Assembly: GCA_040754455.1 (NCBI GenBank)
Contig: JBFMCP010000040.1
Coordinates: 1 to 24,358 of the forward strand
DNA: 24,358 nt
Direction of reading: 5' to 3'
From: Nitrospirota bacterium
Lineage (GTDB): Bacteria > Nitrospirota > Thermodesulfovibrionia > Thermodesulfovibrionales > Dissulfurispiraceae
Shown in pieces: positions 18,001 through 21,000 of the stretch. Position 1 is the first letter of the stretch. Every line of letters starts with the position of its first letter. Position numbers: made by a program.

Positions 18001-21000
18001 CGCTCTCGCTGGTGCTCTCATGGTATGAGCAGAAGGCGGTGGCGATCCTGCTGACGCTCCTGTACCTAGGCATCAAGAACATCCGCATCGGTCCTTCGCT
18101 TCCGGCGTTCATCACCCCGAACGTTCTGAACGTGCTGGTGCAGAATTACAATATCATGCCTATCACCACGCCTGATAACGATCTCAAGGCGATACTGGGA
18201 GAGAGCGTCAAAGCAGCGTAACTGATATTTCTGGAAATAAAAGGAAGTAACGAGGCAGGAGAGGGGAGGCGACTCCCCTCTCCTTTTTGTTTATTTCTTT
18301 TTATTCTTCTTCGCCTGAGCTTTCTTTTCCGCCTGTTTTTGCTCCTGCTCTTTTGCCTGTTCCTGCTCTTTCTCTTTCGCCGCCTTGTACGCCATCATGC
18401 CGCCTCTCAGATACTTCACATTTGTGTAGCCGAGCATAGAGAGGTACATCTGCCCTGTTGCAGAGCGCGGCCCCGCGGCGCAATAGACGACGATCTCGGT
18501 GATCTTCAGTGCAGGCAGCTTGTCGAGGTTTTTCCGCATTTCTTCAAGAGGTATGTTGATGGCGTCAGGGATGTGCTCTTCGTTGTAGTCCTTTGCCCCC
18601 CGCAGGTCAATGGTGACGAGGCCGGGATTGTCCCTCTTTCTCGATGTGTATTCTTCATAGGTTATCGCATTGTAGGAGCCGGTGAGGGTCATCAGAAAGC
18701 GGGTCGCTGCATCGGCCTGGTACGCGTCGTTATAGGCGCGCCAGAGTTTATTGTTGCCCGGCTCAATGGTGATCGCCTTGCGGAGCACCTTCGTGGCGTC
18801 ACTGAACTCTCCTTTGTTATAGAGGTCGATTCCCTGCTTCAGGAGATCCTGCGCTGTCTCTGCAGAGACAGCAGGCGTCTGCGTCAACAGGAACAGGGCA
18901 AAGAGCACGCATGCAGAGAGAATTATTTTCTTCATGGCTATTTCCTCCCCGCCTCTCGGCCTGTTTTCTGCGGTATTTTTTCTACGATGACCCTGCTGTT
19001 CGCCTTGAGCTCATTCGGAACGATGTCTTCCTTCCTCAGGAAGAGCGCTGCGTTGCCGTGGCAGGAATCGCAGGACCTGTTCTGCGGTGTGAGTCGCTGC
19101 ACGTTGTGGGGAGCGGCGTATTTCCATGTGGGGACAGTATTGAAGCCGGTCATCATATTCGGTCCGTAGGCAGAAGCGAGGTCAGGTGTTGTCGGCGCAT
19201 GCCGTACTACAACATACTCATAGGGCCGGTCGTTCCGGTAGTTCCTGCCGATCTTGAACGCCATGAAGGAATGGTCGATCTTATAAAAACGGGCTGTAAT
19301 TTTTCCATCTTCCTCCTTGTATTCGAGATGGCAGTTTTTGCAGTTCTTTGCAATGACAGAATGGCAGACATTGCATTGGAGCCGGTCGCCATGGATGGCG
19401 TGCTGCTCCACTGTTGTGTTCCCTTGCAGCACATCCTTATGGCACTCTTTGCAGTCAGGGAGGAGCGGATTATCATAGCGGTCCCGGAGCGGTGTGCCGG
19501 TCCCATGGAGAGCATTCTCCCTCTTATGGCAGCCGAGGCAGACCATGCCGGAAAGGCGGACATGCGTGTCGGCAGGAGCGCCGGGGTTTTGACCGTAAAA
19601 TTCGTCACCGGCGCGGGCGCTGTGGCAAATGCCACAGGTCATATCCTCGGGAGGAGTCTTTAAAAAGGTATGGCCTGCAAGCAGGCCGCCTTTTGCCGGA
19701 CCTTTCGGTCTGTTGACGTGGCAGTCGCCGCAGGAGGCGTGGCAAGAGTAGCAGTGGCCTTTGAAGATGCCCCCCAGTTCTTTGGGGCCGTCCCCTGTTT
19801 TATCGGGATTCCAGCGCTCTTTTAGGGGCTGCTTCATTCCCGAGGCGGTCATATGCAGGCTCGTTTTGAATCTGTTGACGATATCGGCATGGCACTGGGC
19901 GCAGACGTCCGGTTTTTCATCAGGGCTCCTGATGATGCCTTCATGCGCCTTTTTCATGTCCGTTGCCTTGCCGTCACCGTTGTGGCAGAACGTACAGCCC
20001 TGCGCATTGTGCGTCGAATTCAGAAATTCCTTGCTGCTGACGTAGACGCGCTCAAAAGGCTCCAACGGAGCCACTGCTTTAGCTCACCCTTCGCCTTCCG
20101 AAAGTTTTTTTGGCGGTTCGGGCAGCGCAGGCGCAAGAGATTTCAATTTTTCGAGATTCGTGTGGCAGTCGGCACATGAGTCCGCCTTCGCCTGCTGCAA
20201 GCAGAGCAGAGAGGACAAAAACAGGAGCACAGCGGCAGTCACTAAATTGAGGCGACAACAGTTCCGTCTTTTCATACCTTACCCTCCATAGTGGATTCCC
20301 CCTTTGCGAGACATGTGTCTACTAATTATAATTAATAGATAATATGTTTATTAAAGTTAGCAACAATGAAAGCAAATGTCAATACAAAGGTAGATCTCTC
20401 CCCTGGAGGTATTTACTTGCACCCGGAGGAGAAAAATATATAATTTATATAAGTACAAACATCTTCGGACAGCTTTTGCCGACAACGGTAGAAGAAATAT
20501 CAAAGAGTAAGTTCTTGAAAGGAGCAGCATGAGAAGAAGCATTGCTATAAAGCTTTTTATCGCAGGAATCATTCTGGTGAGCATAGGGGTTTTCATCGGG
20601 TCACACCTCGGTGGAGAGAAAGCACAGAACGGATCCCAGTTCATCGGGTTTCCGCAGTCCTTTGCCGATGTGTCGGCGAGGGTCACCCCTGCAGTGGTGA
20701 ATATCAGCACGACGACGACGGTAAGGGTGCCGGGTAATCCCTTCAAGCACTTTTTCGGCCCTGACGATGAAGGCCCTTTCGGTGATTTCTTCAGGCGCTT
20801 TTACGGTGATATCCCTGATCGGGAGCTGAAGCAGCAGAGTCTCGGGTCAGGTTTTGTGATCGACAAAGAGGGATATATCGTAACCAATAACCATGTTGTG
20901 GAGGCCGCCGACGAGATCAAGGTGAGGTTTGCCGACGGCAAGGAATTCAAGGCAAAGGTCGTCGGAAGAGATCCGAAGACCGATCTCGCCCTCATAAAGA

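Follow-up and report, generated by a model that had tools for sequence, protein, structure and literature searches.

A 24,358-nucleotide contig of a Nitrospirota bacterium (the window) carries on its minus strand a gene for an eleven-haem cytochrome c selenoprotein, followed immediately by a gene for an exported rhodanese. The apparent stop in the cytochrome gene is almost certainly a selenocysteine (Sec) codon, and the two pieces into which the gene has been called therefore almost certainly form one eleven-haem enzyme, predicted to be exported. The pairing of this enzyme with a rhodanese is conserved. The best explanation, to which we give a probability of about 0.55, is that the two genes form an operon whose products are a periplasmic enzyme pair, which would work as a molybdenum-independent polysulfide or thiosulfate reductase.

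Predicted selenocysteine at codon 64 of a single cytochrome gene

The cytochrome gene comprises 445 codons (18938..20275, minus strand), defined by translation and by an alignment of relatives (A1). It runs from an ATG at 20275 to a TAG at 18940-18938, which is included in the gene. The translation contains a single in-frame TGA, and eleven CxxCH motifs were counted on it by eye, at residues 34, 94, 125, 175, 182, 214, 246, 275, 301, 312, and 402. The single frame bears out the genome-wide survey's note, which had joined two called pieces into one gene of this length with eleven motifs. All eleven motifs are invariant or nearly invariant in A1. Motif 1 (CADCH, residues 34–38; 20162..20176, minus strand) lies 5′ of the UGA, and it is in frame upstream of the TGA in relatives too. 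Residue 64 is 26 residues past His38 of this motif, in agreement with the distance of about 25 residues given earlier. Outside the motifs, ten His residues are conserved in A1 (89, 111, 141, 202, 238, 257, 292, 295, 359, and 390), and M244 is the sole other conserved candidate haem ligand. The mature protein has no Cys outside the haem motifs.

Codons 1–31 (20183..20275, minus strand) encode a putative export signal, recognised by eye on the translation as KRR, a hydrophobic stretch, and AKA followed by DS; the N-termini of relatives are of the same kind. About 50 nt 5′ of the ATG, a sigma-70-like promoter match (TTAATA-18-TATAAT; 20325..20354, minus strand) agrees with the consensus at 10 of 12 positions, and it is a consensus match only, as three such sites were found versus 1.5 expected in shuffled sequences. 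A search among RNA runs listed none containing this DNA.

Codon 64 (20084..20086, minus strand) is a UGA in the motif EGEG-U-A. Its reading as Sec, proposed by the survey, is supported by the codons aligned with it in relatives, by a covarying SECIS hairpin, by the full Sec machinery of the genome, and by variation 5′ of the UGA that is synonymous only. A repeated scan of the order recovered the family in 12 of 317 genomes, at 13 places. The aligned codon is TGA at 11 of these and Cys at one (L017), as reported before, and the remaining place (L020) is a C-terminal fragment not reaching the site. Of the 80 best loci in species-representative genomes, TGA occupies the codon in 77 and Cys in two, and one (L071) has neither. 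Cys-type database proteins also align at the Sec column. In 55 full-length database relatives, a set that is biased against Sec forms and in which the linker alignment is uncertain, the column holds C (22), W (8), a gap (8), Y (4), V (3), L (2), M (2), H (1), and single instances of five further residues. As far as the aligned sequences indicate, Sec at this column is thus not universal among the relatives. The eight relatives with Trp, in which this residue may stand for a TGA, are P0045, P0049, P0055, P0133, P0150, P0211, P0238, and P0245. No locus among those collected is closer than 57% identity to the Trp-type relatives, and a scan of 401 genomes gave none closer than 51% to P0049.

An assembly error is excluded by three independent assemblies, in which both the TGA and the frame are kept. 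Their contigs, from three further runs in two other studies, span the whole operon without an indel and with 20084-20086 unchanged. Across these assemblies the cytochrome gene shows 12 synonymous versus three non-synonymous variants, and both variants 5′ of the UGA are synonymous. The genome encodes SelB (376 bits), SelA (626 bits), tRNA-SeC, and two SelD proteins, each with a TGA in its gene. SelB scores above the cut-off in nine of the ten other carrier genomes of the order.

Downstream of the UGA, the RNA is predicted to fold into a SECIS hairpin (GGCUCC-GUU-GGAGCC; 20058..20072, minus strand) with a 6-bp stem and an 11-nt spacer, and Sec would be inserted at the UGA with the help of this hairpin, which starts 12 nt downstream. 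The stem and the 3-nt loop are as previously described; the start had been placed 13 nt after the UGA and is in fact the 12th nucleotide. In an alignment of 75 sequences (A2), 92.3% of cells are paired, versus 43–54% with the partners slid. There are 37 double-sided changes, and the observed covariation score is reached by none of 500 shuffles. Pair 16-28 occurs as CG (44) or GC (23), and pair 15-29 as GC (49), AU (7), CG (6), or GU (5). At the place of the hairpin the Cys-type L017 folds only weakly (−9.1 versus −14 to −32 kcal/mol). The SECIS of the genome's own selD_2 shares the 11-nt spacer and the loop type (GUC), and its stem likewise has 6 bp.

It is very improbable that the TGA is a true stop, which would leave a monohaem peptide of 63 residues and, starting from a GTG at 20074, a ten-haem cytochrome of 378 residues. 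This GTG lies 9 nt 3′ of the TGA, and gene callers annotate the great majority of the database entries seen for the family as cut at the UGA. However, the downstream piece would be without an export signal, and attachment of c-type haem requires export. The Cys codons in place of the TGA in homologues, the covariation of the SECIS hairpin, and the maintenance of the frame across the TGA in 77 of the 80 loci also argue against it.

The rhodanese partner and the spread of the family

The second gene (18291..18935, minus strand) starts 2 nt past the cytochrome stop, with a GGAGG within the end of the cytochrome gene. It encodes an exported protein of 214 residues, in which domain searches indicate a TPR-like N-terminal part and a rhodanese domain (PF00581, 69.3 bits versus a cut-off of 22.2). 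The survey had called it PspE-like. The rhodanese assignment stands, but the protein stays below the cut-offs of the PspE equivalog models (NF007627, 44.9 versus 102 bits; TIGR02981, 42.3 versus 126.3 bits), and it differs from PspE by the extra TPR-like part. The catalytic Cys lies in the loop CAAGPRS at codon 152 (18480..18482, minus strand) and is invariant in alignment A3. Partner proteins of the relatives contain one to six rhodanese domains, and 177 of the 198 domains adjoining relatives keep the Cys.

The pairing with a rhodanese holds well beyond the order. At 66 of the 73 loci flanked by at least 1.5 kb on each side (75 of 92 when all loci are counted), an ORF for a rhodanese is found on the same strand within 700 nt; the other seven well-flanked loci have none adjacent. 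Fusion of the cytochrome to a rhodanese occurs in three of 18 long relatives scanned. P0004 (555 aa) has the rhodanese in the same chain, as the survey had noted for a relative of this length.

The rhodanese and hcp genes converge, and a G+C-rich 12-bp hairpin in the interval that separates them (18257..18284, scored on the plus strand) is a likely terminator. The convergent hcp gene is probably unrelated to the operon, and the neighbours of the operon give no help on the substrate. No quinol-oxidising partner is found beside the operon in this window, and electrons would come from carriers encoded elsewhere. In other genomes, quinol-side modules do adjoin the cytochrome. The neighbours there include NapC/NirT-like cytochromes (24 loci), NrfC-like 4Fe-4S proteins (22 loci), CsoR/CstR-type repressors (12 loci), and a cytochrome b-c fusion (five loci).

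The 12 matches counted earlier, all within the order, underestimate the spread of the family, which amounts to at least 596 stretches in species-representative genomes. Of the 401 genomes sampled from one Chloroflexota class, 88 carry it, and its carriers include many Chloroflexota and Acidimicrobiia. None of the existing family models recognises it. The truncation of database relatives at the TGA, inferred by the survey from their coverage, is borne out: among the 120 matches listed, most cover 77–85% of the query, 12 cover 91–98%, and two cover 60%. The 12 with high coverage include Cys-type and Trp-reading forms. The name sulfurtransferase, given by JGI to relatives (about 25 in the earlier count), is attached to 18 of the same 120.

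Predicted structure and relation to known enzymes

The AlphaFold2 model of the cytochrome has a pLDDT of 89.3 and a pTM of 0.84. Confidence is lowest around U64 (pLDDT 55–71 for residues 51–70), and U64 is located in a Gly-rich, probably mobile segment that links haem 1 to the conserved core. U64 is the sole non-haem chalcogen residue of the mature cytochrome. A Foldseek search of the model against the PDB returned no match at E ≤ 0.001. The nearest fold in VIA-align is that of octahaem tetrathionate reductase (OTR) from Shewanella oneidensis (1sp3_A; Z 9.1, rmsd 4.5 Å, 266 residues aligned), with residues 86–441 of the model on residues 1–437 of the chain; the next entry has a Z of 4.8. By this comparison the two share an octahaem core fold. 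OTR acts on an S-S compound, and its catalytic haem is Lys-ligated. The cytochrome has three haems beyond those of OTR, and its N-terminal module, comprising a haem and the Sec, also sets it apart. The profile match between the two is weak (E 7.6e-7), and the OTR residues around the second haem motif of OTR fall in an insertion in the HMMER alignment. The OTR family model TIGR04315 (cut-off 375 bits) does not match the cytochrome at E ≤ 1; four other genes of the genome match it. Among the entries in the table of PMC13188914 is a GenBank-annotated Sec form of the TIGR04315 family.

MccSep of Geobacter sulfurreducens, which is ExtKL (GSU2937-2936), is a multihaem polysulfide reductase that contains Sec and depends on it, and its gene cluster also encodes a rhodanese-like lipoprotein, ExtH (PMC13510729). 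MccSep resembles the cytochrome in several respects: it is a multihaem cytochrome c of the periplasm, its single Sec stands at a UGA with a SECIS-like hairpin 3′ of it, it has Cys-type relatives, and its cluster includes a rhodanese-like protein. In contrast, MccSep binds five haems, its Sec is residue 325, and its Cys239 ligates a haem. The survey had set the cytochrome apart from this family of five haems and a C-terminal Sec, and the distinction holds, as the cytochrome has eleven motifs, carries its Sec at residue 64, and lacks a free Cys in its mature form. The ExtKL model (NF040886, cut-off 250 bits) does not match the cytochrome at E ≤ 1; it matches two other genes of the genome with 600.7 and 454.9 bits. 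The weak likeness to ExtM (NF040943) was confirmed at 35.1 bits versus a cut-off of 800. The supplements of PMC13510729, which the survey had left aside, print Sec-containing sequences in their tables, and four motifs of the cytochrome family are absent from Data S1–S5. Our literature search found no paper on an eleven-haem Sec cytochrome, and in the passages of PMC13188914 covered here the selenoprotein table lists as cytochrome entries only ExtKL, the GSU2204 family, and TIGR04315.

Psr, TsdA, SoxAX, and thioredoxin reductase are named in the discussion of PMC13510729, and the cytochrome has no sequence relationship to TsdA and SoxAX, with their His/Cys-ligated catalytic haems, or to thioredoxin reductase, with its Sec on a flexible Gly-flanked tail. 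The G-U-G/A context of the cytochrome resembles the tail of thioredoxin reductase, in which a mobile Gly-flanked Sec works between the substrate and a buried redox centre. A functional parallel is offered by Wolinella succinogenes, in which Sud, a periplasmic rhodanese-type carrier of polysulfide sulfur, feeds Psr. In the pair described here, an exported rhodanese with a catalytic Cys would likewise supply a respiratory reductase with sulfane sulfur. Whereas Psr is an enzyme of the molybdopterin type, the acceptor here is a Sec multihaem cytochrome whose partner has one to six rhodanese domains or is fused to it.

Proposed reaction and its alternatives

The cytochrome and the rhodanese probably take part in the reduction of sulfur compounds, and we infer that the cytochrome is a rhodanese-fed, Sec-dependent reductase of sulfane sulfur, with polysulfide or thiosulfate as the substrate. 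The rhodanese would take up sulfane sulfur from either compound as a Cys persulfide. The selenolate of U64 would then attack the persulfide to give an Se-S adduct, and electrons passing along the haem chain would cleave the adduct, releasing sulfide. The genome also encodes DsrA, and it has two MccSep genes and a gene of the OTR family; because of the two MccSep genes a second polysulfide reductase would be partly redundant.

Other roles were considered. A part in nitrogen-oxide metabolism is suggested by the adjoining hcp gene on the opposite strand, by YgbA-like genes at six loci, and by OTR-like enzymes, which act on nitrite too and more generally reduce nitrogen oxyanions (PMC13510729). 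We rank it low because of the pairing with a rhodanese. A pure electron-carrier role was set aside, as it would leave the conserved Sec/Cys and the rhodanese unexplained.

The alternative that we take most seriously, while still regarding it as unlikely, concerns the place of catalysis. U64 would be the sixth (distal) ligand of one haem, making it a His/Sec-ligated haem, and the reaction would occur on the ligand itself rather than on a free, swinging selenol. Eleven haems are present versus only ten conserved non-motif His residues, the mature protein has no free Cys, and M244 is the only other candidate, though it could itself be the eleventh ligand. Relatives without Sec or Cys often have Y, H, or M at the column (four, one, and two of the 55), all of which are able to ligate haem iron, but ten of the 47 occupied cells hold non-ligating residues and the alignment of the variable linker is uncertain. 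In TsdA, SoxAX, and MccSep, catalysis takes place at His/Cys haems (PMC13510729). Against this reading stands the low confidence of the model around U64. More doubtful is the wider proposal in which U64 is an axial ligand, forming the first natural His/Sec haem, and the pair acts as a molybdenum-free thiosulfate or polysulfide reductase in about a fifth of the species of a major Chloroflexota class and in several other phyla. The sulfur cycle would then have a selenium-dependent branch that has escaped recognition because gene callers end their genes at UGA.

The substrate and the direction of the reaction can also be read differently. That the pair handles selenium, reducing selenite, elemental selenium, or tellurite, or delivering selenium, with perselenide carried by the rhodanese, is improbable in our estimate. 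MccSep supports selenite-dependent oxidation of methyl viologen (PMC13510729), the first role linked to its cluster (extH, extI) was the reduction of selenite and tellurite (PMC13510729, PMC5877670), and the one NCBIfam model with any match to the cytochrome, ExtM, describes a "selenite/tellurite reduction operon" cytochrome, albeit with only 35.1 of 800 bits. Yet the family occurs in 88 of 401 genomes of one class, and environmental selenium is scarce compared with sulfur. One to six Cys-keeping rhodanese domains in the partners suit a bulk sulfur carrier, and the genome is rich in genes for sulfur respiration. We hold it still less probable that the pair works in the oxidising direction, with sulfane sulfur, thiosulfate, or sulfide oxidised at U64 and electrons passing through the eleven haems to the respiratory chain. 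TsdA and SoxAX, which are haem enzymes of thiosulfate oxidation with a chalcogen ligand (PMC13510729), offer a precedent. Many carriers are Chloroflexota and Acidimicrobiia, which need not be sulfur reducers, and CsoR/CstR-type repressors adjoin the 12 loci mentioned above. Against oxidation, the nearest fold is that of a reductase, the known Sec multihaem enzyme is a reductase, and the genome has DsrA, MccSep, and OTR-family genes.

To our knowledge, Sec-dependent multihaem enzymes have been in the literature only since MccSep (2026). Judged by sequence models, the cytochrome would represent a second Sec multihaem family, unrelated to MccSep, with more haems and joined to a rhodanese. It provides a ready test case for selenocysteine as a haem ligand. 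If reduction of polysulfide or thiosulfate by the pair is true, molybdenum-free sulfur respiration would extend widely through groups that are not regarded as sulfur reducers, it would be constrained by the supply of selenium, and genome-based inventories of the sulfur cycle would miss a major enzyme.

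The two-gene operon and its surroundings

The cytochrome gene runs on the minus strand from the ATG at 20275 to the TAG at 18940–18938, with a single in-frame TGA at 20086..20084 (codon 64; context EGEG-U-AKAVAPLEPFERVYV). The read-through product comprises 445 residues. Its N-terminus is basic and hydrophobic and ends in AKA, a signal peptide on visual inspection. The translation contains eleven CxxCH motifs, all of them conserved in the cytochrome alignment (A1), and the mature protein contains no cysteine beyond them. The 214-residue partner (18935..18291, minus strand) begins two bases past the cytochrome stop, with a GGAGG within the end of the cytochrome gene, and combines a signal peptide of its own with a TPR-like stretch and a rhodanese domain (PF00581, 69.3 bits), whose active-site loop reads C152-AAGPRS. 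Because of the 2-base gap, a promoter-like site ~50 nt upstream of the cytochrome gene, and a strong hairpin between the rhodanese gene and the converging hcp, we take the two genes to form a compact operon.

Around the operon lie hcp, four genes of a NiFe hydrogenase cluster, a DegP protease, and a Crp-type regulator; no obvious coupling links any of these to the pair. The product of hcp (16530–18221, plus strand) is a hybrid-cluster protein / hydroxylamine reductase (817 bits); since residue 16 is the first to match the model, translation probably begins from the ATG at MFCYQCEQ and not from the listed GTG. The hydrogenase cluster (12073–16135, minus strand) resembles a soluble NiFe hydrogenase, with 4Fe-4S, NAD-binding, small, and large subunits; its called ORFs 14179–15039 and 13406–14368 overlap, so one start is probably miscalled. 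Elsewhere in the window, a Lon-type protease (6727–8739, minus strand; AAA, Lon lid, and Lon_C) with an N-terminal response-regulator receiver domain adjoins a histidine kinase (5119–6630) and a sigma-54 activator (3754–5115).

Evidence for selenocysteine at codon 64

Five independent lines indicate that codon 64 almost certainly encodes selenocysteine: the codons of homologues, the SECIS, a matching selD, the Sec machinery, and agreeing assemblies. Were the TGA a true stop between two separate genes, which we consider very improbable, a ten-haem cytochrome would be left without an export signal.

A repeated scan of the order reproduced the figures of the genome-wide survey's note. The gene is patchy, with matches in 12 of 317 genomes at 13 places; the aligned codon is TGA at 11 of these and Cys at one (L017), and the last (L020) is a C-terminal fragment. 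Two TGA places look damaged, perhaps through gene decay or faulty assembly: L011 carries an extra TAA in the cytochrome frame, inside a haem motif (TCR*CH), and the upstream part of L021 lacks both a start codon and a signal peptide. Scanning one genome per species gave at least 600 stretches, 596 of them confirmed, and the best 80 loci comprise 77 with TGA, two with Cys (L072 and L081), and one with neither (L071). The family motif is S-E-G-x-G-U-G-G, then P-P/A-L/V-E-x-W-E-K-V. Trp occupies the Sec column in database relatives P0045, P0049, P0055, P0133, P0150, P0211, P0238, and P0245; that of P0150 has all the surroundings typical of the Sec forms (GEG-W-AG..APLEAWEK), pointing to a TGA that was annotated as Trp.

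The SECIS hairpin, GGCUCC-GUU-GGAGCC, follows the UGA after an 11-nt spacer. It was aligned in 75 sequences, the window and 74 of the 77 TGA loci (L025 and L061 have different spacing, and L026 was missed by the pattern). Of the cells, 92.3% are paired, versus 43–54% with the partners slid. Changes on both sides occur in two pairs (CG 44 / GC 23; GC 49 / AU 7 / CG 6 / GU 5), and none of 500 shuffles reached the observed covariation. The changes exchange Ala and Pro codons on both arms, indicating that the constraint acts on the RNA. The Cys-type L017 folds weakly at this place (-9.1 versus -14 to -32 kcal/mol). In a 41%-identity clade of the order (L012–L016 and L021), the SECIS differs, with a longer hairpin, a GGUG loop, and a position nearer the UGA.

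The genome encodes SelB (376 bits), SelA (626 bits), tRNA-SeC, and two SelD genes (C21:48405-49331, minus strand; C37:23899-24813, plus strand), both with an in-frame TGA; the SECIS of the second selD consists of a 6-bp stem with a GUC loop and is likewise set off by a spacer of 11 nt. Of the ten other genomes in the order that carry the cytochrome, nine have SelB above the cut-off; the remaining one is 82% complete. Three further runs, belonging to two separate studies, yielded contigs that span the operon with no indel and with the TGA intact. In these contigs the cytochrome substitutions are 12 synonymous versus three non-synonymous; the two that precede the TGA, at codons 37 and 54, leave the protein unchanged, indicating that the upstream segment is under coding constraint.

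The rhodanese partner and the spread of the family

With a rhodanese profile built iteratively from the window's domain, a same-strand rhodanese ORF was found no more than 700 nt from the cytochrome match at 75 of 92 loci overall, and at 66 of the 73 having at least 1.5 kb on both sides; at the other seven (L024, L051, L054, L061, L065, L070, and L089) there is none within that distance. The survey's feature is real, and well supported as a selenoprotein gene paired with a rhodanese. Partners contain one, two, four, or six rhodanese domains. The catalytic Cys is kept in 177 of 198 domains, and in both domains of 36 of 43 two-domain partners, a pattern that fits an array of sulfur carriers better than it fits a classical two-domain transferase, in which the N-terminal domain is dead. 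Three of 18 long relatives scanned (P0004, P0140, and P0177) have the rhodanese in the same chain. The TPR-like N-terminus is common to the window's rhodanese and its closest relatives, and the longest listed contigs (3021, 2662, and 62471) are equal in length for three of the closest rhodanese relatives and three of the closest cytochromes. In the clade of L012–L016 and L021, the cytochrome is followed by a two-domain and then an additional single-domain rhodanese.

Recurrent neighbours at Chloroflexota-type loci are a divergent LysR regulator (30 loci), a NapC/NirT-like multihaem cytochrome (24), an NrfC-like 4Fe-4S protein just downstream (22), CcmF (13), a CsoR/CstR-type repressor (12), CcmE (11), and a cytochrome b-c fusion (5). 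At the Desulfobacterota-type L052 and L060, the pair stands alone, as in the window. At the Cys-type L081 (Calditrichota) and L072 (Actinomycetota), a sigma-54 activator and a small TPR protein precede the cytochrome; in L081, three further multihaem cytochromes follow, one with a Por secretion tail.

At E<=1e-10, 209 relatives were found in a word-indexed protein search. The survey's note took database relatives to be cut at the TGA; most of the 120 listed begin just past the UGA, with 77–85% coverage, 12 reach 91–98%, and two 60%. When 50%-identity representatives were searched exhaustively, 562 matched at E<=0.001, of which 287 reached E<=1e-10 and 121 reached E<=1e-30. The best 80 loci are mostly from Chloroflexota (Anaerolineae and Dehalococcoidia), and also from Acidimicrobiia and other Actinomycetota, Desulfobacterota, Calditrichota, Phycisphaerae, and Gemmatimonadota. 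Of 401 genomes sampled evenly from the class holding locus L103, 88 matched at E<=1e-60, and 85 of 93 places have at least one in-frame TGA, counted anywhere in the frame. Some relatives carry two extra C-terminal haems and a membrane anchor.

Known cytochromes and a proposed function

The AF2 model of the cytochrome (129-row alignment) has a pLDDT of 89.3 and a pTM of 0.84; residues 51–70, U64 included, reach just 55–71. Foldseek gave no match in the PDB at E<=0.001. In a Foldseek-independent structure search, octahaem tetrathionate reductase (OTR; 1sp3) is the top match (Z 9.1, rmsd 4.5 Å over 266 residues, model residues 86–441), and HAO is second (Z 4.8). In profile-to-sequence comparison, solved structures match weakly (28pb_A, 1.1e-8; 6qvm, 1.2e-7; 1sp3, 7.6e-7). 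The cytochrome scores 35.1 of 800 bits as ExtM and has no match at E<=1 to ExtKL or TIGR04315; judged by family models, it belongs to none of the known kinds. Full-text literature searches turned up no publication describing an eleven-haem Sec cytochrome, and in the portion of a 2026 selenoproteome review covered here, the cytochrome entries are only ExtKL, the GSU2204 family, and a GenBank-annotated TIGR04315 form (PMC13188914). The paper on MccSep/ExtKL, the Sec five-haem polysulfide reductase, prints Sec-containing sequences in Data S1–S5 (PMC13510729), which the survey's note had left unread. None of four motifs of the present family occurs in the 1,270,052 characters searched there, the first 400 per cell, the Sec site lying within the first 130 residues.

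We propose that the rhodanese would pick up sulfane sulfur as a persulfide, that U64 would accept it as an Se-S adduct, and that the haem chain would reduce the adduct to sulfide. U64 is the sole free chalcogen nucleophile of the cytochrome, in a Gly-rich segment poorly ordered in the model. MccSep offers a precedent: its Sec325, beside a Cys-ligated haem, is described as essential for polysulfide reduction, and its authors allow for additional sulfur-transfer components (PMC13510729). Three observations count against our reading: the U64 residue is not universal (L071 and database relatives), seven of 73 well-flanked loci are partnerless, and the window contains no electron-input module.

In a narrower variant of this mechanism, U64 might itself ligate a haem. 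Conserved His residues outside the motifs number only ten for eleven haems, plus M244, and relatives without Sec or Cys sometimes show Tyr, His, or Met at this column. The linker that holds this column is variable, and the 55 full-length relatives compared are a set biased against Sec forms; we therefore regard haem ligation as unlikely. Selenium-specific, oxidative, and nitrogen-oxide roles of the pair rank lower than sulfur reduction.

Besides the window's cytochrome, the genome has two genes for the Sec polysulfide reductase already published (C49:11522-12787 and C32:7990-9135, both minus strand; 600.7 and 454.9 bits, above the cut-off; one in-frame TGA each). It also contains an OTR-family octahaem cytochrome (C5:188-1477, plus strand; 564.8 bits, above the cut-off), three weaker OTR paralogues below the cut-off (C12, C48, and C7), and DsrA (540 bits) and DsrB-like genes on C13. 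The coexistence of MccSep and OTR with the cytochrome in one genome argues for a distinct job for the latter. Its family, distinct from both, is widespread and systematically mis-annotated.
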